This document shows positions 13-54,854 of a stretch of 64,000 bases of DNA, piece by piece. The first letter of the stretch is position 1. Every line of letters starts with the position of its first letter. The stretch covers positions 26,538,001 to 26,602,000 of the forward strand of contig NW_024704742.1 of assembly GCF_018977255.1 (NCBI RefSeq), in the 5' to 3' direction. Under the pieces are notes generated by a model that saw nothing but the letters and a program-made list of their open reading frames with translations, was not told the DNA's origin and ran no database searches. The translations under genes were made by a program, and so were the position numbers. The DNA is from Callorhinchus milii. Lineage: Eukaryota.

Positions 13-3000
13 CAACAACAACAACAACAACAAGATTCCATTTATAGAGCGCCTTTCACGTCAGGAGGACGTCCCAAGGCGCTGCACAGTTGGGTCATGA
101 CCCGAGCAGGGGGGAAATGGTCAGGGTGAGGGGAGGGAAGGGAGGGAGAGAGGAGGGGGAAATGGTCAGGGTGAGGGGAGGGAAGGGAGGGAGCGAGGAG
201 GAGGAAGAGAGTCGAGAGGGGAGCTGAAGGCACGGTCAAAGAGAAAGGTTTTGAGACCGGCCTTGAAGGAGGAAAGGGAGGAAGCAAGGCGAAGGCACTG
301 GGGGATGGAGTTCCAGAGCCTCGGGGCTGAGAGGCTGAAGGCCCGACCACCGATAGTAGGGCGGTTGGGGCGGGGGACGTGGAGCAGACCGGAGCCAGAG
401 GAACGGAGGGTACGGGCAGGTAGGTAGGGGGATAGTAGGTTGGAGAGGTAGGAGGGAGCAAGGCCGTGAATGGCCTTGTAGGTGAGGATGAGGATCTTGA
501 AATCAATCCTCTGGGGGATGGGGAGCCAGTGGAGGCGAGCGAGGGTGGGAGTGATGTGGTCCCGAAGCCTGGTGCGGGACAGTACACGAGCTGCAGAGTT
601 CTGAATGACCTGCAGCTTGTGGAGGGAGGTGGCGGGAAGGCCGGCGAGGAGAGAGTTCCCATAGTCCAGCCTTGAGGTGACAAAGGCGTGAACCAGGGTT
701 TCAGCAGCGTGAGGGGTGAGGTAGTGCCGTAATCTGGCGATATTCCGGAGGTGATGGAAGGCGGTGCCAGTTGTGGTGCGGATGTGAGGGAGAAAGGACA
801 GCTCAGGGTCGAACAAAACGCCGAGGTTCCTGACTGGCTTTGAGAGGTGGAGAGTGCAGCCTTGGATGCTGATGGTGTCAGCGCCTGAGGTGCGGAGGCG
901 CTGACGTGAGCCAATCAGGAGGGCCTCGGTTTTTTGCACGTTGAGCTGAAGAAAGTTGTCTCTCGTCCAGGACTCGATGTCGGACAGGCAGGCTGTCAGG
1001 ACATCGGTGGTCGTGGAGTTGAGAGTAGAGGAGGAAAGGTAGAGTTGGGTGTCATCCGCATACATGTGGAAGTTAACCCCATGTTTGCGGATGATGTCAC
1101 CAAGGGGGAGCATATAGAGGGTGAAGAGGAGGGGACCGAGGACAGAGCCCTGAGGGACACCACATGAGACAGTACGGGGGGTGGAGGAGAAGCCATTCGT
1201 TGAGACGAAGTGAAGACGGTGAGAAAGGTACGACCTAAACCATTCAAGGACAGTGCCTTGAAAGTTGAGGTGGGAGGACAAGCGGTGGAGTAGGATAGTG
1301 TGGTCGACCGTATCGAATGCTGCCGATAGGTCGAGGAGGACGAGGAGACAGAGGGAGCCCTGGTCACAGATGGTCAGGATATCATTGGTGACCTTGACCA
1401 GGGCAGTTTCTGTGCTATGAGCAGCACGGAAACCTGACTGAAGGGGTTCAAAAAGAGAATGGGTGGAAAGGAAAGAGCGCAGTTGGGAGGCGACAACTCT
1501 TTCCAAGACCTTGGAGAGAAAGGGGAGGTTGGAGATGGGCCGGTAGCTTGATAGCTGCGACGCATCAAGGGAGGGTTTTTTCAGGGTGGGCGTGATGATG
1601 GCAGTTTTTAATGGAATGGGGACAGAGCCAGAGGAGAGGGACAGGTTTATGATGTCAGTGATGTGTGGGGCAAGAAAATGGAGCTGGGAGATAAGGAGTG
1701 GAGTGGGGATGGGGTCAAGGGAGCAGGTGGTTGGTTTTAGGGATAGGATGAGTTCAGTGACAGAGGGTGGGGAAACGGGTACGAAGGTGTGTAGGGGAGG
1801 ATGGGTAGGAGTCGGAGTGTGGGAGGGAAGGGGTGGGTGGTGGGTGGAAGTTGGAGGGGAAGTGACCGCGGAGCGGATTCCCTTGATCTTGGATTCAAGG
1901 AAATCCAGCATCTCCTCGCAGTGAAGGTTGGAGGAGATGACCTGCGCGGGGTGGCGGGGGGACGGAGGAGTCGGGATGTGGTGGAAAACAGTAGCCTGGG
2001 GTTGTTCTTCGCCTCCAGGATTATCCTGGAGTAGAAGGACGACTTGGCCGAGGCTAGAGTGGAGCGGTAAATTTTGAGGAGGTCCAGCCAGATTTGTCGG
2101 TGGACCGTTAAGCCGGATTTGACAAAGGTGCGCTCAGCAGCCCGCACCTGGCATTTCAGTGAGCGGAGGTGGGTGGTGTACCAGGGGGAGGAGCGGGAGT
2201 AGGAGACAGTGCGGGAAGTGATGGGGGCAAGAGTATCGAGTGTGGAGGAGAGGATATTGTGGAGGAGGGAGAGAGGAGAAGAGGGGTCGGTGAGGGTTGA
2301 AGGCCAGAGGGAGAGGAGTTCAGAGGACTCCAAGGCATCGGTTAGGGATTGTGGGGGTAACTTCTTCCAAGGGCGGTAGAAGATGGTGGTGGGTCTGGTG
2401 GAGGTGGGGAGGGGGGTGGAGGTGGTGAAGGAGATGAAGTAGTGGTCGGAGATGGCCTTGTCGGTAATAGTGACATCCGAGACACTGAGGCCCCGGGTGA
2501 TCACCAAATCGAGTGGGTGGCCGTGACTGTGAGTGGGGGAGTTTATGTGTAGGGAAAGGTTGAGTGAGGAGAGCAGGGAAGAGAAGTCTGTGGAGATGGA
2601 GCAGGAGGGGGTGAAGTGTAGGTTAAAGTCGCCCAGGATGATGAGGCGATCGGAGCAGAGGCAAAGAGATGTGAGGAGTGTTGAAATGTCAGAGATGAAG
2701 GTGGGAGAGGTTTTAGGGGGCCGGTAGAGGAGGAGGATTTTAAGGGAGAGGAATGAGGGGTGGGAGAGGGTGAGGTGCTCGAAGGAGGGGAAAGAGCCAG
2801 TGGAGTAGGGGGAGAGGGCAAGTGGTGTCCTTGAGATAAGGGCAACACCACCGCCACGGCGGTTGGGGCGGGGGATGTGGTGGGAGGTGTAGCCGGGTGG
2901 CGTGGCCTCCGTGAGGGGGAAGGTGTCGCCTGGGGTGAGCCACGTTTCTGTCAAGGCCATGATATCAACGTTCTCATCAAGGATGAGATCGTTGATGACC

Positions 3001-3184
3001 AGGGCCTTGTTGGAGAGGGAGCGGACATTTTGCAGTCCGATGTGGAGGGAGCGGTTGACAGAAGGGTGTGTGGGAGGGGAGGGGGGTCCAGGTTGTGAGG
3101 CAGGGGTGGGGGAGATGGGGATGAGGGAGGAGAGGTTGACTCCCCGGGTCTGTGTCCGGGGTGGCTGGCGAGAGTGGTGGGGAA
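13..3184 (-). mobile_element. Young 5'-truncated L2-clade LINE with almost complete ORF2 (APE + RT) and (TTG)n tail
   Basis: APE motifs (LQNVRSL, ALTETWL, GDFN, LDLVI, SDH) and RT motifs ([29 protein letters not shown]). (CAA)n on + at 13-33 is the 3' tail. TATTA direct repeat at 8-12 and 3185-3189 is the TSD. Confidence 0.95.
166..3184 (-). CDS. L2 ORF2 endonuclease/reverse transcriptase, split by one 1-nt frameshift near 1948-1951
   Basis: ORFs 1737..3506 (APE part) and 166..1911 (RT part) overlap in different frames. Adding one C in the C-run restores ...[22 protein letters not shown]... Confidence 0.9.
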
Positions 3185-3189
3185 TATTA

Positions 3190-3455
3190 GCGGGCAGGCC
3201 TTCCGACACTCTGCATCCACCCCCTAGAACTCCATCCTGAAGTCCCTCTGTCTTGCCCCCTCCCTCGCCACTTTCAAGACTCACCTCAAGACCCTCCTTT
3301 TCTACTGTAATTTTGATCTCCCTGCTTCCCCCCCCCGCCCTCCACTCTTTCCCACCCCGAACCCCAGCTCGGGTCCGTAACTCTGTCTGTCCAACACCTT
3401 GGGACGTCCTCCCAACATGTAAGGCGCTATACAAATGTAATTTTATTGTTGTTGT
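3190..3455 (+). mobile_element. Older L2 3' fragment, the target of the young L2 insertion
   Basis: ggcaggccttcc...aactccatcc...ttcaagactcacctcaagaccctc...aggcgctatacaaatgtaattttattgttgttg matches the L2 tails at 13141-13370 and 23310-23500. Confidence 0.85.
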
Positions 3456-4176
3456 ATATCTGACTGACTGTGTATTTTGTGGGCCAATGCAGCAGCTAGC
3501 ATGCAATGGTATTTGTAGTTTAATGACACAGTTACATTAAAAAACAGCAAAACACAGCACAAAATGAGTTTTGCCGTGCTAAAACATTATGTACATAAAG
3601 CCAGGTTGAGTTTCACTCTTTCAGAAATGTATAGTAACAATAATAGTAATAATCCTTGCATTTGTGCCTTTTAAATTGGAAAGATGTCTTAAAGTGTTTC
3701 TCATGATTACTGTAAAATGTGGCAACTGTGTATTTTGCACTGCCTAATTTCCTGCAACTATGGAAGCAGTATCAACTTCACTAAACTATCGTGACCCACA
3801 TGGAAACCATCACCACGCTTAAGAGTCTCCAAACTAAATTACTGAGAGTTCCTCATTTGTATGGTTTCCATTCATCTGATATGGAGTTGAACTCTCTCTC
3901 CAGAGGAGCACATTGTGCTAACCTAATCCAAGAGAGTTCAGTGATAGTTTATTAAAGGAGATCCAAAGGCTGGGGACGCCAATGTGTCCGTTGGATAACT
4001 GCTGGAGCTTAACCAGTTAAAACCATCCAGTCTACCATTGCAAAAACTGGCACATTTGCTGCCATCTGTCTGGCTTGTTCTACCCTACAGATTATGGTTT
4101 TGGCAGGATTCGCAGGAGCTCAGTGGGAAGAGCCCTCACCTGGACTGATGTCTCAATTATTAGGAGTTGTGCTTAC

Positions 4177-5597: not shown

Positions 5598-5763
5598 CGT
5601 TGGTTGAAAGGAGGAAGTGAGCTGCATTCTGTTGAGGGAGCCATCGGATCTTATTGATCTTTTCTTCTATTTCCAGACTTTTCAGGTAATCAAACTCGGG
5701 CTCATGACTCTGGAAGGTGCTGTAAACATTGTATTCACCCTGCTGGTGAGGCTGTTTTTTTGT
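5598..5763 (-). CDS. ppp2r2c: PP2A B55 coding exon, 166 bp: [55 protein letters not shown](D)
   Basis: catag acceptor and gtaagt donor. Contains the invariant B55 signature [15 protein letters not shown]. Phase 0 in, phase 1 out, consistent with both neighbouring exons. Confidence 0.92.
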
Positions 5764-6168: not shown

Positions 6169-6266
6169 CTCTTGTTCTCTCTGGAAGATAACAACTCGAC
6201 CCCCCTTGTCCCCTGTAGCCAGCAACTCTCCAGTGTGGTTGAACTCGACGGTAGAAATTATATCAG
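6169..6266 (-). CDS. ppp2r2c: PP2A B55 first common coding exon, 98 bp: (A)[32 protein letters not shown]
   Basis: tctttctccttcag acceptor and gtgggt donor. FNHTGE is shared by beta and gamma. A phase-1 upstream exon is required. Confidence 0.92.
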
Positions 6267-9688: not shown

Positions 9689-10049
9689 GTGAAAACAAGC
9701 TCTCACATGTTACACCCAAGCTTACACTTAGTTCGTGGAACTGGTATTATCAATCTCCTGCAATTGTTTAAATCCAATGGAGGAATCTTGCAATGCCCAG
9801 ACCTGATAGTCTCCTGTGTTGAAATTTCTATGATATCTTCCCACAGATATTGAGAAGAGATTCCTGTCAGCCCACCAGTCGGTATCAGACTGATAATCTC
9901 TAATTCTGCAGGTACAATCAATACAGTACATGAAGCTTTTTCATTTTCAAGGTGCAACTGAGAGTAGAAATCCACGTTCTTTATTCTTGATGAACAGCCT
10001 TACACATTTGCAACAAGGTAAGCTTGCAGTTGAAATACAAAATGGCTTT

Positions 10050-10231
10050 CTCCACAAGCTCCAGACCACGCAGAACTCCACAATCCTCCGCAGACCTCCT
10101 GTGTTAGGCTCATCACCCTCCTCCTCACCCAGCTCCTCTGGACACCTTATTTTCCCAATGACTAAGATCTTTGCCTTTATCTTCAAATGCCCCAGTGGCC
10201 TGATCCCCACCCTACTCCTGCAATCTCCTGC

Positions 10232-10291
<60 letters not shown>

Positions 10292-10575
10292 CATCTCCTA
10301 CCTCCCCGGTGATTCACTTTGCTCCACCAACTCTGATCTCCTTCTTGGCCCACTCCACCCAACCCACCATCAGCAAGTAAGCTTTCAGCCACTTTGCCTC
10401 CATACTCTGGAACCCTCTGCCTCACCCCTTCTTTTCTGCATTCAAAATTATCCATTTGACTGTGCCTTTGGCCATCTCCCCTTAGATTACCCTTCCAGTT
10501 CAGGCTCCTACTCAATCTTTGTAAACTGCCTGAAATAGTCTCCCTACATTAAAGATGCTGTATAATTGAAGATGT
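10050..10575 (+). mobile_element. Decayed L2 3' fragment interrupted by an (ATT)n tract
   Basis: ctccacaagctccag...cagaactc and ctctggaaccc...tttgactgtgcctttggc are L2 landmarks. Confidence 0.65.
10232..10291 (+). repeat. (TAT/ATT)20 microsatellite
   Basis: Perfect trinucleotide tract; gives the poly-Ile artefact ORFs on both strands. Confidence 0.97.
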
Positions 10576-29762: not shown

Positions 29763-30076
29763 GTGGAGTCCTGTAGCTCAGTGGTTAGAGCACTCGCCTT
29801 GCAAGCGAGACACCTGGGTTCAATTCCAGGCAGGGTGAAACCTTGGGCAAGTTTCCTTACTCCACACACCTAATAATAATCCCTCCAAAAAAAACAATAA
29901 TAAATCGGTCATTTTCAATCCACGACTGTTTGTGGGACACTGCTGTGCGCAATTGGCTGCCGCGTTTCACCCACAAATATACAGTCAATTCACTTTACAG
30001 TCTATTCTGTGAAGCGCTTTGAGATGTCGAGAAGATGTGAAAAGCGCTATATCAAATGCAAGGATTATTATTATTA
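29763..30076 (+). mobile_element. Full-length tRNA-Ala(TGC)-derived SINE
   Basis: Head gtggagtcctgtagctcagtggttagagcactcgc-cttgcaa-gcgag...ggttcaattcc (anticodon stem-loop with TGC), Deu-like core, L2-like tail ending (TTA)n. Confidence 0.93.
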
Positions 30077-43600: not shown

Positions 43601-45926
43601 TTTGTAGGAGATCATATTTTTTACTCAGCAATGTCCTACAAACAGTCATGAAGTGAATGACCATTTTTTTTTATTTGTGAGAGTGATGGCCAGGAGAAAC
43701 GCTGTTCTATTTTTGACAGTGTTTAACGTCCATGCAAACAGGACCTCAGTTTAACGGCTCATCTGAAAGATGACACACCTCCAACCATACAGCGCTCCCT
43801 TGTGACTAAAAAAAATGATATTCAATGACATAATTATAACTGCCAATAATTACTTTACATTTTTCGGTCCTTTATATCCTAAACATACAGTATCCAGAGG
43901 AGCTTTGAGAATATGAGGTCAGGACTTCACAATGTGCAATGGGTTACGAACTGCTTTATAATTGGATTCTTTGGGAACACACATCCTAAAATAAGTTAAT
44001 TACCAGGGTTTTCTTCCCAATTGATCATTAGACATTAAAAATAATTACACAATTATCCACTGGGCTGACGAGAGACAGAAAAACAAAAACACAAAACAAA
44101 ATTAGATTTGTGCAGAACGCGAGATAATTAGTGTGGGTGTTGAAATGAAAATATATCCAAGTGGTTTAAAAAATTAAACTGGGGAGCAATTCCACCTGGA
44201 TCTAGATTTACTCTGTTCGTGTAGCATTTTAGAGCATACAAACTGTGCAAATTATCTTAAAGCAGTTCTGATAGTTCTTAAAAGATCTCAAAAGAAAAAA
44301 ATGCTTAAAAATTAAGGCTGTGTATAAGAGATTATCGAATTCTGGAGTTCTAAAATCTACATAAATAGAATAAATCCATGTCGCTGTGGAATATCTTTGC
44401 AAATATGTGTTCACTGGCATAAATACAATGTAGGATAATTGTAAAGTTCAATAAATGTATTTTATGGAATTGATCGACTGAAAAGTACAGTAAATACTCA
44501 AAATTTGGCTGTTCATTTCCCTATTACATCAAGGGACGTCAAAGGATACAGGCAGAGAATCGGGAGGTTTGGAGAGAGAATTGAAATGGGGAGCCAAATG
44601 ATGAAATAAAAACAAAGAAAATTCAAATTTAACTCAAAAGAAATGACCAAACCAATGTTAGTTTGGAGAAATCTGTTTCTCATTAACGAAGGAAGTTTCT
44701 TCTAATTTAATATCCTGGCCAACAATCCACTGGATAAAACTGCCATTCACTTCAAGGCTGTTGGTGGGACATTGCTGAGTGCTAGTTGGCTGCCACCTTC
44801 ACCTACAAAATACAGTCACTACGTTTTACAGAGTAAATCCTGCGAAGTGCTCAGAGTCGTCCTCCTGACGTGAAAGACGCTTTACCAAAGTTAAGAATTA
44901 ATGGTATTAACAGTGCCATTTGATTTATACTCCACCAGAGGGTCGTTCATGCAGAATTTATTTTGTCCAAACCCATAATGGACACATAGCAAAAGCTGGT
45001 GGTGCCTGTCTTTGATCTCTCATAGAGATAGTCGATTATGTAAACTTTTACTACTTTGCAAATAAGGCAGGCACACTTTTCACAGAGCAAAAAAGGAGAG
45101 AATTGTGCTCAGCAATTTTCTGATGAAGTTATGCTTGTTTAATCAATGACCATAGTTTTAATCCATTGCAATTCTCATTCTGCCCACTGTCATCCTGTTC
45201 CAAATCACAGAATCATACAAAAGGAGGCCATTTGGCCCATCTTGTCTGTGCCGGCTCTTTGAAAAGAGCTATCCAATTCAATCCCACTCCCTGCTCTCTC
45301 CCCATAGCCCTGCAAACTTCTCCTCTCCAAATAATTATCTACTTCTCTCTTAAAAGTTGTTATCGAATCAGCTTCCACCACCCTTTCAGGCAATGCATTC
45401 CAGATCTGAACAACTCGCTGTGTGAAACAAATTCTCCTCACCTCCCCTCTGTTTCTTTTAACGACTATTTTAAATTGGTGCCCTCGGGTTACCGACCCAC
45501 CCGCCAGTGGAAACAATTTCTTCCTGTTCACCCTATCGGATCCCCTCATAATTTTGAAAACTTCTATTAAGTCTCCTCTTAACCTCCTCTGCTCAAAAGA
45601 GAATAATCCTAGCTTCTTTCGCCTCTCCTCATAAACTGAATTCCCTCATTCTGGTACCATCCTGGTAAATCTCCTTTGCACCTTCTCCAATGCCTTGACA
45701 TCCTTCCTAAAGTGTGGGGCCCAGAACTGAACACAGTACTCGAGCTGAGGCCTAACCAATGTTTTGTAAAGGTTCATCATAACTTCCTGCCTTTTGTATT
45801 CTATGCCCCTATTTATAAAGCCTGGTATCCTGAATGATTTTTTTTTAAATAGCATTATCGTCCTGTCCTGCCACCTTCAAAGATTTACTTATATGAACCC
45901 CCAAGTCTCTCTGTTCCTTCACCCCC

Positions 45927-46394
45927 TTTAAGATCATATTTGTGAAACTTACTGTTTTTAAGATTTTTAATCAGTATACTTTTAAAATGTACACTTACAA
46001 TTTGTTTAGTACAGCGGTCCTTAGCTATTAGGGCATAGACAAAGGTGTGTGTTTTTAAATAACTAACTTGGGGCCCCTGAGAGGGTACATGTGGCAGTTA
46101 GCGTTAGCAAAGGTAAGGATATATTGGCTTGACCCTTGCTGAGGTCAGGTTTTGATAACTTTCCCTCGCTCGGTGCCTGGGTCCTATGTCATTCTCCCAT
46201 CTAAGAATTGAGTAATCATGTCCTTGAGCACAGATGTGAAAACAAGAAGACTCAGAGAGAGAAGCGCCCTCCTGTAAATCTGATTAGCTCAATACTAAGA
46301 AACGGGAATCCTCCCAATTAGCTGTGCATATCTCTTTCTCCTTATCAGTTATTTTCCCATGCAAAAAGAGCCTGCTCAAAGCCTGTGAAGGGTG
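45927..46394 (+). repeat. 5' LTR (U3 part only; R-U5 and PBS missing)
   Basis: Aligns to 49280-49755, then switches abruptly into gag-like sequence after gcctgtgaagggtg. Confidence 0.85.
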
Positions 46395-47710
46395 CATGCA
46401 GCGGATGATCAATTTCGGGTTTACAGCATCCAGAATTGGAAGACGCTGATATTGGTCAGGTTTTGGTTTCTACATGGGATTCATCAGTGAGACAAGCGTT
46501 ACTGGCGTGGCCTCCAACTACAGAGGAACGGTGGCAGAGAGGGCTATTCTTCAGGTCCTGGGGATGGATCATCAAACCCTTTTAAATTATACTGAATGAT
46601 ACAGGATTCCCATGAACACCTTCGGGCTTTTGCAGCGTGATTATTTAGTGTTTGTTGCTCGGGATTGCAAGCAGAGTTGGATGTGGGAAGTGCTGTTGTG
46701 CTGCAACAGGAGCAGATCAGACAAGCGCAGCAAGCAGTGATTCTAGCAGCACAGCAAGCAGCAGCACAGGTTAACAAACCAAGCTGTCCCTCTTCAGCCC
46801 CAAATGTTCATCCCTAATAGTCCTCCTCCAACAATGGAGGACCCGGCTCTCTAAACCATGTTTTTAGAACAGCTAAACCCCAAACTAAAGATGGCATCTG
46901 CTGCTGTGGCAAATAATACTCTACCATGGGACAACATTTTAGAAGCGGTAGAACAGGTTTGGGATTTGACCTCTCATAATCGTACCCCCTCGCCCTCTTG
47001 CACTCTGCGGCCTGTAGCAGCAGTGGAAGGACCCCTCTGAGAACGTGACAAGGACATGGTTCAAGGGAAAGGCCAGGAAGGTGTTACAATTGCGAGAAAC
47101 CTGGGCATTATGCCTATGATTGTCGGTCAAAGAGACCAGAGGAACCTCCAAACAGGGGGCGTATGCAAAGAAATTTTGCAGCCTCCAGCAGGAGTCGGGG
47201 CAATTGTTACAACTGCGATAAACCAGGGCACCATAAGTGGCAATGTAGATCATGGAGATGAGAGGGTCTACCCTCTAGACAAACTCCAAATAACAACAAC
47301 TTGGGAACCAATAATAAAATTCACTGGTTAAGACAGAAAATTGAGAGATTGGAGACTCTGTTCAATGTTCAAAGGATCACATCACCAGCAAAAATGGGAA
47401 GCTAGACAGGGAGAGGCAGACAAAAAATTAAAAGGGCATAAAGTAGCAGCCTTGGTAGAGAAAAAAACTGAAAAAGTGCAGAAGAATAAGGTTCTGCAAG
47501 ATTTAAAAGACAAAACAGGACAAATTTATTCTGCAAAAGAATCAAATTTGGAAAAAAGGTTGGGACAAATGGACACTTCGGAATTTGAAAGATTACGGAG
47601 GGAGTTAAAAGCAATGAGGCGACTGATTGAGCAACTGATTGAGCAACGTATAGATCCTAGTGTTTCACAGTGTTCCACCAATATGCCTCCAACCAGAACG
47701 GGGAGATGAC
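46395..47710 (+). pseudogene. Decayed gag (capsid C-terminal domain/MHR, nucleocapsid, coiled-coil extension)
   Basis: QDSHEHLRAFAA*LF (MHR-like, 46602-46646); MFLEQLNPKLK; CYNCEKPGHYAYDC (47082-47123); CYNCDKPGHHKWQC (47205-47246). Confidence 0.85.
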
Positions 47711-49279
47711 TCATTCGCTAATCTAAAGGCACTCAAACAGTTCAGTCTACTTGTGAGGAGTCAGAAAAGGTCAAAATGCTCTTCTCTCAAATAAAGAGAT
47801 TAACAGAAGGTGGGCGAGACAGTAGGATGGGTTAATTGAGGAAAAAAACAGCAAGAGAAAGAAACTTAGACAGCAACTTTAAAAATCACTGACTGCAGCC
47901 ACTGATTATGAGCAGTTTAAATTCACTGACTGCTAGCAGTCTGGTTTTTGTAAACCAAAAGACACTATACAGGCTGCTCACGGAGAATTAACTCTCTAGT
48001 TTCCACATAAAGTAAAACTGTTTTTGCTGCTAATGATCCTGTCCAAGCTACAGTTGAATCCCTGGTAAAGCTATCAGAGCAAGCATTTTGAAACAATAGC
48101 GCAAATAGCTACTGCGATCAGATTAGCCAACTAAAGTGTTTAAAGAACGGGAGATTTCACCTTGTGATTTAGTTCCTGCAGATACTAATAAGAATGGCTT
48201 GTTACACCCCATGCCTTCTATTCTGGGACGACTTATACTTTTCGCCCCACCTACAAAGCCGGTCTTCGCATTCAATTTGAGTTCGACCGTCTAGGGGTTA
48301 GACAAGTGGACAACTACAACGCAGTCAATTGTCTAATTCGCAACAGCGGCCAATACCTGCACAGAGGACAGGGTTGTCAACCGCACGTGTTTTGTAGGCG
48401 TCGGGTGTGGTAAGAGCGCGAGGTGACAGGGTCGATAGGTAGAATAAACACTGTGACAGTTCAAGAAGGAAACGTGATAGTATTAGGAATGTCAGTATTC
48501 TGATTTATTTTATGTAACATTTACTTTGTCTGTTCCAGTATTTTAGAATGCTCAAAGCCTGCGGGCAAGGATAGAGCGAACATCCACTGAAATAATATAA
48601 AAAGTTTCTGTGGCCATACTGTTTATGTTAATCATGATATTATTGCTAATGATGTGCCGTAATTATATATGCTAAAATTAGTTGAAGGCACTGATGCGGT
48701 GGCTGAGATAAAAGAGAATCGTGAAGATTCTGATGGTGATGGTGGGCTTGTGCTGTCAGCTTGACCCACTACAGGAGGGGACTGGACAGTTAGCACTCCC
48801 AGAATTCTGTCTTCAGTTGACCAAAGAAAATCGTAAAGAATCGTGGATTTGTTTTGCTGAAATAGAACTGATTCTATGGACTCAAAAAGACATTGGTAAA
48901 GTCAGCACATTTCTGCAGACTTGGCGTACGTGACCAAAAAGGTCTGAATTTGGGAACAAGGAAGCCGAGTCTAACCGATCTTGAGAAAATAGATATTCTG
49001 CAATCAACATGAATCTTACCAAGTTAACAAGTCGATTCCTAATCACAGCCGCTGTGTCAATCTGATTCATTCATTGCACTGAACTTTATTACTCTTGTCT
49101 TATGCCTTTGTGATTGCCCAAGCTATAATTTTATTTACAATGATTGTGTCTTTATGTTATTTGCACTTCCTATTAAGGGCTACCCAGTTGCAATCGGACC
49201 ATTTACAGTTCACTAACTTAATAAATCATAGATAAATGAGAGATCGTAAATCTTATTTTCTCACTTTCAAGGTGGGGAC

Positions 49280-49980
49280 TGTAAGATTATATTTGTGATG
49301 CTTACCGTTTTTAAGATTTTTAATTAGTATACTTTTAAAATATAACCAAACACTTATAATCTGTTTAGTACAGCGTTTCTTAGCTATTAGGACAAAGACA
49401 AGGGTGTATGTTTTTAAATTATGAACTTAGGGCCCCTGAGATGGTACATGTAGCAGTTAGTGTTAGCAAAGGTAAGGATATATTGTCTTGACCCTTGCTG
49501 AGGTCAAGTTCTGATAACTTTCTCTCGCTTGGTGCCTGGGTGGGTCCTATGTTATCCTCCCATCTAGAAATTGAGTAATCATATCCTTGAGCAAAGATGT
49601 GAAAACAAGGAGACTCAGAATTGCACACCTGGAAATCTGATTAGCTCAAGACTAAGAAACAGGAAAGGAATCCTCCCAATTAGCTGTCCATATCTCTTTC
49701 TCCTTATCAGTTATTTTCCCATACGAAAAGAGTCTGCTCAAAGCCTGTGAAGGGTGGGGGCTATCTCTGTGACAAGGGGAGGTGGAGTTAGAAACATATA
49801 AAAGATGTAACTTTGAAATAGTTGGAATTGTCGTAGAGGGTCAGAGCACTTCCCAGTGGAATCGATATTAATTCTCCTGTTTCTATGGTCTCAGTTTTAA
49901 GAATAAGTTAAGCTATTTGTATTACTTAATAAACCTTGGATTATTACACCACTGTATTGGTCGTCTCCATTCAAATCTCA
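49280..49980 (+). repeat. 3' LTR, about 700 bp, TG...CA
   Basis: Starts TGTAAG after the PPT; TATAAAA at 49797-49803; AATAAA at 49928-49933; ends ...aatctCA where CR1 resumes. Confidence 0.85.
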
Positions 49981-52444
49981 TAGTACCATCTAGTTTATAT
50001 TCTTCTCCTCATTCTTCCTCCCAAACTGCATCACATTGCATTTCTCCACAGTAAACTTCATCTACCACGTGTCTGCCCATTTTACCAGTCTGTCTTTGTC
50101 CATTTGCAGTCTGCTACTATCCTCCTCACCGTTTACTACTTTTGCTAGCTTTGTATCACCTGCAAACTTGGAAATTGTACTCCTTATACCCAAGTTCAGG
50201 TCATTTTCCTAGATCAAAAAGAGCAGTGATCCTAATAGCGACCCCTGGGGGATACCACACCTCCCTCCAGTCAGAAAAACAACCATTTCACAAATCAACA
50301 ATTTCACTTTTTTAAAAAAAAAGAATTTTCAAGGTATTTGCAAGTCATTTCTTGAATTAAAATTTTGTCAAAATATACATTGCTCCTCTTGAGAAGAAAA
50401 TTGTTCCAACAAACCAATTCAACCCTCTGCCCCTTCTCCCTCCAAGGAAACAAACACAGCCCCACACAGTATTTAACCTCCCTGTTATATGATGACAAAT
50501 TCCTTTCAGAAAACAAGTTGCTATTGATCAAAGTTGCAAACAAGGTGAGTTGGAGTGAAACTGGGTAAAAATGAGACGGTAAAAATGAGAGGGGCAAAAC
50601 ATTTACAAGTAACTGATCAAGTGTGTCATATTGGAAGCAGCATGCATCAGTGAAAGACTTCAGAGTTAACTGCACAGATTCCCTGCACAATGTATTTTCA
50701 ACATCAGGGAGGAGAGAATGTGCGGTGGGGAAGGGTCGGGTGGGAAAAAGACAGAGAGAGGCTTGACCTCTGTCATTCATTTCTGAAGACCAGTTGCTAG
50801 TTACAGGGTCTGGGAGGAGCTCACTGCCCATCTACAAATGGAGTAGGGGATGTATTCAAAACCAGGAATGGAAATTAAATGGCTGAATAAACACTGCAAA
50901 CACCTTTCTGAAAAGTGGTCGCTTCGTTGAGAGGACAAAATTAACAAACTCAATGATTTGTCAACACACGGAAATATTCTAGAAAATGGCCAATTCATAC
51001 TTTTAGAATAAGTTTGAAAGGATGATGAATTAGATTCATCTACCATCAAATGAAAAGCCTTGGTGTAGCACAGGGTTGCCATGGAGCAATTTATCCCAGA
51101 AAATCTTTGAAAAGTTGCTATTATAAATCAATCATTCACTTGTTACATTTCTCACAAGTACAAGAACTGTCTCCATTTCAAAGAGGTTTTTTTTGGAGGG
51201 GTGGAGGTGGTGTCAAACATCTCAGAATTTTCTCTGTTCCTGAACCCGTTTATAGTTTACCTTTTATATATCCTTTGGGATATAAAAGGTATTGAAAAAT
51301 ACCAAAGATTTCCTTCTTTAACTCCTGAAAGACCTTTCGAGGCAGACAGGGATAACGATCCTTCAGATGAGAAGACACTGCATTAATTAAACATTATACA
51401 GCGTGATCAAAGTTAATAGCTGAAATGACAGACATGCTTTCGGAAAATGAGATGCACAAGGTCCTTTCAAACAGATTGGTTCTCCTTTCTCCCAAGCAGA
51501 TCATTTGACTTTCTTTTTACCTCACCGTGGTCACAAAATTCATGTTGGGGTTTAAATTGCCGGGGGCGTGATGATGGGGGGGGGGGGGGCGCGGGGGGGG
51601 AAGAAAGGAGAGAAAGTGGGGGGGGGGAAGAATCCAAAAAGAGGTTCGTTATTAGCGGATCCCGGAGCCGAAGTGGCTGATCATATGGAATGGAGTTCAC
51701 ACGCCAAGTTCATGGAATTCCTAACAGATTGGCACCCATGCAGATTTCCTGTGGGTTGTCCATGCCCCAGACTTGCTCTTTGCTCTTTACAGTTCCCCCC
51801 ATGCAATCATCATGTGGTAGGAAATCAAGCGTTGACCCCGAGTGCTGTTATTTCCGTCAGCTGATCTTCCCCCACTCAGTTTTATATGGGATCAGTACAC
51901 TTTACGGTGTATTCTGTGAAGCGCTTTGAGACGCCTCAAAGACGTGATAGGGCGCTATATCAAATGCGAGGATTATTATTATGCCCTGCAACATTTGAAA
52001 ACACATCCTTATTCTTTTGGCTGGGGGTTGCAGCATACAGATCTCAAATGTAGCAGAAGTGGCAAGGTTACAAACGCAAACTGAAGCAGCTGCTTGCACG
52101 ACTAGGTCAGACGATTGACATGGAAGGCTGGGAAGGTGCTTTGCATCTGAAGCTTAAACCTCTTTTATTGAATGAGCAAGATGAAGCTACAAGAGATCAT
52201 CGAACATTCCTTGTTCTTCATTCATCCTTCCTTACGCTGCAGTAACAGAAAGTCAGGTCAGCTTGAAACACTTCAGTTGTCAAGTGCTTATTTGAACAAT
52301 TTTCTCTATGGATAAATATACAGTATCAATGAAATTGTGGTGGTTATGAGGGGGAATTCTTAGGTCATTGCTTTACTTTTCTGTAATGGAGATAGGAGGC
52401 TTCAGTGGACTTGGTTCCATTTTATCCTCTTGTGCCTCTAATGA

Positions 52445-54530: not shown

Positions 54531-54854
54531 TAATAATAATAATAATAATCCTTGCATTTAATATAGCGCTTTTCACATCGGGAGGATGTCCCAAAGCGCT
54601 TCACAGAACACACTGTAAAGTGAATCGACTGTATATTTGTGGGCGAACGCGGCAGCCAATTGCGCACAGCAATGTCCCACAAACTGTCGTAGATTGAAAA
54701 TTACCAATTTATTATTGTTTTGGGTTTTGGAGGGATTATTATTAGGCGTGTGGAGTAAGGAAACTTGCCCAAGGTTTCGCCCTCTGCCTGGGATTGAACT
54801 CAGATCTCTCACTTGCAAAGCGAGTGCTCTAACCACTGAGCTACAGGACTCCAC
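54531..54854 (-). mobile_element. Full-length tRNA-derived SINE
   Basis: Reverse complement closely matches 29763-30076. Confidence 0.92.

Follow-up and report, generated by a model that had tools for sequence, protein, structure and literature searches.

In zebrafish, BHIKHARI (Bik-1), a relative of the endogenous lokiretroviruses, carries only gag; no copy contains pol, and an autonomous partner is assumed (10.1101/2024.03.25.586437). In plants, the TR-GAG elements are non-autonomous long terminal repeat (LTR) retrotransposons that have gag as their only reading frame and depend on a partner (PMC4350172). Lokiretroviruses themselves are defined by reverse transcriptase (RT) phylogeny, a dual RNase H, and a PF00523-like Env, and some carry an SMC-like gene (PMC7947760); cartilaginous fish do not appear among the hosts in the main text of that paper, as judged by 0 matches for shark, cartilaginous, and Chondrichth. 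In the elephant shark, the endogenous retrovirus lineages CmiERV I to III have pol followed by env (PMC4422223). Here we describe a retroelement at positions 45927 to 49980 of a 64,000-nucleotide (nt) stretch of elephant shark (Callorhinchus milii) DNA from contig NW_024704742.1 (the window). A preliminary description, made from the letters alone, had read it as a pol-less derivative of an env-bearing retrovirus-like element that kept gag and the ends of env. Our analysis suggests, with a probability of roughly two in three, that it belongs to an old LTR family that was non-autonomous and carried gag only, and that this copy is dead and has suffered further deletion. It is unable to move or to make protein.

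Direct repeats at 45926 to 46394 and 49279 to 49756 match at 419 of 463 columns (90.5%) of a local alignment with five insertions or deletions (indels), and the Kimura two-parameter distance between them is 0.10 +/- 0.016. Together with the purine tract noted in the preliminary description, which lies directly before the 3' LTR, and with a gag bearing CCHC knuckles, the repeat pair identifies an LTR retroelement; intact termini and a flanking 4- to 6-bp duplication are what it lacks. Both LTR copies reported earlier are present, and what had been overlooked is that the 5' copy is partial: the final 224 bases of its partner (49757 to 49980) have no equivalent in it, and it abuts capsid-like, mid-gag sequence at 46395. 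This deletion (46394/46395) took away R/U5, the primer-binding site (PBS), the leader, and the beginning of gag, and no PBS is found behind the 5' LTR of this copy. At least about 1.2 kb are missing, lost before or after insertion. No further copy of the LTR element was found elsewhere in the 64-kb window. At the yearly rate of 2.2e-10 substitutions for each site assumed in PMC4422223, whose author treats it cautiously, the LTR distance corresponds to about 230 million years, and at a mammalian rate it corresponds to about 23 million years; the age of the element can be given only as "old."

The best-supported part of gag is the pair of tandem CCHC knuckles, which Pfam recovered twice as zf-CCHC (E = 1.3e-5, above the cutoff) in nine readings over six frames, as the preliminary description had led us to expect. 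Their closest PDB matches are retroviral nucleocapsids, a likeness that is generic for the CCHC motif. The major homology region (MHR)-like motif ahead of them can be read by eye and has no match in Pfam or the PDB, and other capsid pieces likewise gave no meaningful PDB match. A helical capsid piece yielded atlas leads to Caulimovir_coat_dom (0.86) and Retrotrans_gag (0.84), both weak and at lead level only, and a fold search with the two-helix piece returned 0 matches at an E value of 0.001. Protein searches with the gag frame found no relative among 926 near-length or 2145 longer candidates, 17 pattern matches in IMG/VR included 0 relatives, and 13 JGI metagenome loci, drawn from 531 pattern matches, were rejected because their likeness is confined to the knuckles. 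The earlier statement that the element kept gag stands for the knuckles and the capsid-like remnant and not for the front of the gene, which is deleted in this copy. Behind the knuckles lies a segment with weak coiled-coil matches in Pfam, below the cutoff, which was modelled from its single sequence as long helices (predicted local distance difference test score, 80); its longest stop-free frame runs for 125 codons (47332 to 47709), and its top atlas match scored 0.79, with no family. It may be the C terminus of Gag or a separate frame. No pol follows it: Pfam found no protease, RT, RNase H, or integrase family in six frames, and a motif scan returned a single FWDD, out of context, in agreement with the earlier failure to find any motif of these enzymes.

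The absence of pol appears to be a property of a family. Contigs from 4 of 24 public runs (X1, X2, X5, and X6, with 1279, 1429, 308, and 296 aligned records, respectively) were aligned to 46395 to 50040 at 80% likeness; X5 and X6 are guessed to be RNA runs, contig depth is not equated with copy number, and what follows holds among the rows listed, 32 of 3517 for aligned pieces and 24 of 1063 for loose ends. Contigs with long unrelated loose ends begin at 49280 (20 in X1 and 23 in X2, at an agreement of 0.4) and stop at 49970 or 49979 (17 and 22 in X1); these stops beside unrelated flanks fix the LTR borders and show many insertions. A second copy is represented by record 21 of X6, a contig of 3454 nt that is 10 to 17% different from the window copy and matches it in three gag blocks and one 3' block. 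It has 217 letters between its matches at 47532 and 48491, compared with 958 in the window copy, and extends 1208 letters upstream of 46395. The contig ends a little before the polypurine tract (PPT), only 1326 letters after the last knuckle, a distance too short for a pol gene. Its gag-side blocks recur, with almost identical difference counts, in records of X5 and X2, and the joint of 47616 to 47972 is present in both X2 and X6. Moreover, the stretch from the knuckles to the PPT is wholly covered by contigs of other copies, so that it belongs to the family and is no local scar. A second copy so diverged, with about 1.3 kb where pol would have to lie, favors a non-autonomous family over a one-off deletion, and to that extent supports the preliminary description; the family is probably non-autonomous. 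On the question of whether other copies have pol, the one further copy that was followed is pol-less.

Some other features of the contigs deserve mention. The coiled-coil remnant is partly present in the second copy too. Several contigs of other copies start matching at 48465 to 48491, suggesting that the last 800 bases before the PPT form a module shared more widely than the middle of the element. In the 3' LTR, the 3' part (49689 to 49932) is covered far more deeply than the 5' part, and 9 to 24 contigs per run diverge just before 49742, which may reflect LTR subfamilies, perhaps including that of an autonomous partner. In X6, record 21 has a depth of 33.7 and record 22, a piece of the window locus, one of 2.25, a hint that another copy is transcribed if the run is indeed RNA.

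If the family moved as a non-autonomous one, LTR-driven RNA would have come from a master copy that also made its own Gag, whose two-knuckle nucleocapsid would have packaged this RNA. An autonomous relative recognizing the same PBS, PPT, and LTR ends would have supplied protease, RT/RNase H, and integrase in trans, and the 3' 1.4 kb would have been carried along untranslated, as cis-acting or passenger sequence. The window copy would then have landed in a CR1 element, antisense to the B55 gene, and undergone neutral decay.

Our interpretation departs from the preliminary description mainly in the 3' region, where a signal-peptide-like segment and a transmembrane (TM) segment with a cytoplasmic tail had been taken as the ends of env. 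Both hydrophobic segments are present as placed, with the frame of the second closing 44 nt, not 45 nt, before the 3' LTR, and at the thresholds tried the plus strand of 47300 to 49279 contains no others. The first, the supposed signal peptide, has no start codon, a stop directly ahead of it, and another stop six codons on, and three contigs holding 184 of 330 depth in X1 have a 2-nt indel inside it. Searches of Pfam, of libraries of 1.84 billion and 5.8 billion proteins, and of the PDB gave no similarity to envelope or fusion proteins. No Pfam match to a PF00523-like Env of the lokiretrovirus type was found at E values up to 1 or 10, at a sensitivity lowered by decay; frame 1 of 47332 to 49235 had 0 matches among the 1.84 billion proteins, frame 0 of the 3' region had none among 3140 candidates, and pieces of the region had no meaningful match in the PDB. 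Frames 0 and 1 were each compared with one large protein library and frame 2 with Pfam only. These blanks weigh little, because gag also lacks relatives and decay cuts sensitivity.

We also determined the minimum number of frame breaks in reading through each region and compared these counts with 300 shuffles and with 400 decay simulations of random open frames. The 3' region (1410 bases) needs 15 to 20 breaks, and counts as low occurred in 128 and 174 of the 300 shuffles, whereas 2 to 3 breaks suffice for 720 bases of the host CR1, whose age is at least that of the insertion (counts as low in 1 and 0 of 300 shuffles). The coiled part needs 3 breaks (27 and 8 of 300). Decay at the LTR-derived rate reached the count of the 3' region in 0 of 400 simulations, and harsher rates did so in 1 and 0 of 400; the count of gag was reached in 17 to 264 and that of the coiled part in 185 to 362 of 400. 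The host CR1, like gag, is in line with such decay. It follows that the 3' region was already closed as a reading frame when the copy inserted, whereas gag and the coiled part may still have been open. Taken with the blank searches and the indel in segment 1, this result speaks against the claim that the ends of env were kept, and an env that was a coding feature of the mobile form is both unproven and unlikely. RNA folding of 48450 to 49279 was no better than that of shuffles (z = 0.56; 14/20).

The alternative that survives best is that the ancestor was an env-bearing, retrovirus-like element and that the 3' region is the relic of an env already dead in the master lineage before insertion, which would be compatible with movement by borrowed enzymes. 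We consider this unlikely, but it is the rival to be taken most seriously. The two most hydrophobic stretches of the element lie here, the second ending just before the LTR, where an env would have its anchor and tail, and two or more such segments (Kyte-Doolittle 2.3 over 19 amino acids) occur in only 1% of 300 block shuffles; of 54 native 2-kb tiles taken from the window, however, 3 have such a pair, and both segments lie on T-rich DNA (42% and 51% T), so that as a sign of env the pair is suggestive only. An RRKR at 48464 stands where other copies start matching, but the internal region holds five matches to R-x-K/R-R, which puts it at chance level. The CX6CC motif does not occur on the plus strand, QNR/ENR matches are scattered and do not make up the immunosuppressive motif of the TM subunit, and segment 1 was rejected as a fusion peptide both for want of CX6CC and because its spacing to QNR-like matches misfits the layout of a TM subunit. 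Finally, the two-knuckle nucleocapsid matches retroviral nucleocapsids best, while the capsid leads point, weakly, to Gypsy- or caulimovirus-type coat domains, and no search returned an envelope match. A more specific form of this idea derives the family from an unsampled, retrovirus-like lineage of cartilaginous fish that bore an envelope and of which only gag would remain. The stretch from about 48465 to the PPT would then represent the TM half of that envelope in worn form, Gag would be unusual in its build (capsid, two knuckles, and a long C-terminal coiled coil) and without a detectable relative in the protein libraries searched, and the copy may have entered without integrase; as a joint claim we find it improbable.

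Several observations weigh against a gag-only family, and some of them lend themselves to a different explanation, namely that an ordinary autonomous Gypsy or endogenous retrovirus family suffered one-off or repeated independent deletions and that the pol-less form never spread. The window copy does carry one large private deletion at 46394/46395, and the second copy differs from it by about 740 nt in the middle, which makes independent deletions possible. Among the rows listed, one other copy was followed from gag to the 3' end; its contig comes from a run guessed to be RNA and is possibly chimeric or a spliced RNA. Coverage of the gag half is far thinner than that of the 3' half, and a gag of this kind may be absent from many members of the family. 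Pol-bearing copies may be hidden outside the rows listed, and no autonomous partner was seen in the contigs examined. In the frame-break test, gag needs 6 breaks, and counts as low occurred in 55 to 173 of 300 shuffles, not clearly better than shuffled DNA, which indicates that the test is weak for short regions. On the other side, two copies that are 10 to 17% apart are both pol-less, and the stretch from the knuckles to the PPT recurs in the contigs of other copies. On balance, independent deletion seems improbable to us, more so than an env relic. The remaining possibility, that at insertion the mobile form had coding sequence for an envelope, or for the signal peptide and TM ends of one, as well as for Gag, draws on the presence and order of the two hydrophobic segments and is very improbable, given that no simulation at the LTR-derived rate reached the break count, that a CR1 at least as old is still nearly open, and that segment 1 lacks a start codon, is enclosed by stops, and in other copies is broken by an indel.

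At the junction with the host DNA, no target-site duplication of 4 to 6 bp was found. The CR1 frame is complete only if 45927 to 45933, which resemble the LTR start, are counted as CR1, and family contigs run a few shared letters beyond the 3' end of the window copy; both termini therefore look trimmed and the target intact. Two independent terminal indels would have a rough chance of 0.2 to 0.6% at the LTR-derived indel rate, which microhomology would raise. In one cited study, integrase-defective HIV-1 insertions mostly had LTR truncations and no duplication (PMC11042837). A fair reading of the junction (45927 to 45934 and 49979 to 49981) would be integrase-independent capture of complementary DNA.

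As the preliminary description had it, the element is nested in a CR1: the minus-strand RT frame is interrupted by the element and reads on across the site. The nearest coding exons of a B55 (PPP2R2) gene lie on the minus strand, and their positions (Table 1) place the element antisense to the gene and about 40 kb upstream of them. The antisense orientation is thus as described, while the intron is deduced from the splice acceptor at which the nearer exon begins; searches of the window with five motifs did not find an upstream exon. The element likely sits in a long 5' intron of the gene, and nothing suggests that this copy affects it. Elsewhere in the window, a long, nearly open ORF2 of a long interspersed nuclear element (LINE) occupies 166 to 3536 on the minus strand in two frames of 599 and 655 codons, with endonuclease and RT recognizable by eye; it is a comparatively young copy. 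Two ARAGORN calls of alanine transfer RNA (29768 to 29837 and 54779 to 54849) fall within copies of a 320-bp repeat and are probably heads of short interspersed elements, and a trinucleotide microsatellite at about 9950 to 10010 translates as a long isoleucine run (minus-strand frames 9897 to 10538 and 9947 to 10297).

Table 1. Features of the element and its surroundings (positions in the window)
Feature	Position	Strand	Basis or remark
Host CR1 LINE, 3' part of ORF2 and tail (left flank)	45205..45933	-	RT frame needs bases up to 45933
5' LTR remnant, U3 part only	45927..46394	+	Repeat alignment; first 7 bases also claimed by CR1 frame
Deletion junction	46394..46395	+	5' LTR end, PBS, leader, and gag front gone; second copy longer upstream
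Capsid-like gag remnant	46395..47040	+	Split over several frames; motif by eye, lead-level atlas matches
MHR-like stretch	46596..46661	+	By eye, from capsid motifs; no confirmation by Pfam or PDB
Two helices in capsid-like remnant	46855..46974	+	Low-confidence helix model, no fold match
CCHC zinc knuckle 1	47082..47123	+	Pfam zf-CCHC, PDB
CCHC zinc knuckle 2	47205..47246	+	Pfam zf-CCHC, PDB
Coiled-coil-like coding remnant	47261..47830	+	Few frame breaks, helix model, weak Pfam matches
3' internal region, non-coding at insertion	47831..49268	+	In many other copies; no homologue found
Hydrophobic segment 1 ("signal peptide")	48601..48657	+	No start codon, stops on both sides; other copies carry a 2-nt indel at 48624
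Hydrophobic segment 2 and tail	49083..49235	+	TM-like position; DNA 51% T over 49083 to 49163
PPT	49269..49279	+	Purine-rich, directly before 3' LTR
3' LTR	49280..49980	+	TG start; TATA at 49797; AATAAA at 49928; 3' terminus 4 to 5 nt short of family end
CR1 LINE on the right flank, continuing the same RT frame upstream	49981..50208	-	No target-site duplication
B55 (PPP2R2) coding exon nearest element	6169..6266	-	
Next B55 coding exon	5598..5763	-	

In the literature searched, we found no description of such a gag-only LTR family in cartilaginous fishes; Repbase and Dfam, which were outside the search, may hold an entry. On our reading, a fish lineage with poor annotation gains an LTR family that has gag only and is not yet catalogued. 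Such families matter because the Gag of zebrafish BHIKHARI is required for development, and given that role, intact young relatives of the window family would be worth finding. Should the 3' module after all descend from the env of an unplaced lineage, cartilaginous fishes would gain a further entry in the record of enveloped retroelements.

Among the known systems, the CmiERV lineages share with the element only that they are LTR elements of cartilaginous fish; the LTR ends given in their supplement are unlike, an exact search of that supplement for three short PPT and LTR motifs of the element gave 0 occurrences (line breaks can hide matches), and no pol or env homologue was found in 45927 to 49980. 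Lokiretroviruses have a similar LTR-gag layout, but none of their defining features is present or detectable in the pol-less window copy. Membership in either group, or in BHIKHARI, was rejected for want of the defining features. Troyka was also rejected, its elements having CG...CG termini (PMC12440569) in contrast to the TG start seen here, and comparison with the Metaviridae (Gypsy) offers only a weak Gypsy-type capsid lead (0.84 to 0.86), with the protease, RT, RNase H, and integrase absent. Passages of four further papers (PMC9040795, PMC4977317, PMC10699275, and 10.1101/2023.10.26.564294) contain no lineage placement for the element. The likeness to TR-GAG elements, a structural analogy only, lies in LTRs, a gag frame alone, no enzymes, and the need for a partner. 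TR-GAG elements are found in plants, however, and are under 4 kb, whereas the window copy has 4054 nt even with at least about 1.2 kb missing, and the whole family element would probably exceed 5 kb, with its 1.4-kb non-coding 3' region and coiled-coil extension. BHIKHARI resembles the element as an LTR family of a vertebrate whose one frame is gag, which lacks pol and presumably depends on a partner, and whose Gag includes a coiled coil. The Gag of Bik-1 has its coiled coil at the N terminus and a glycine-rich patch at the C terminus, whereas the elephant shark element has two knuckles and then a coiled coil, its N terminus being deleted; and Bik-1 is young and intact, with target-site duplications and a developmental role, whereas the window copy is old, broken, and without a duplication. 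The two were compared by description, with no sequence link found, and the likeness is one of way of working only. Overall, the elephant shark element most likely worked in the manner of BHIKHARI or TR-GAG, as a member of neither.

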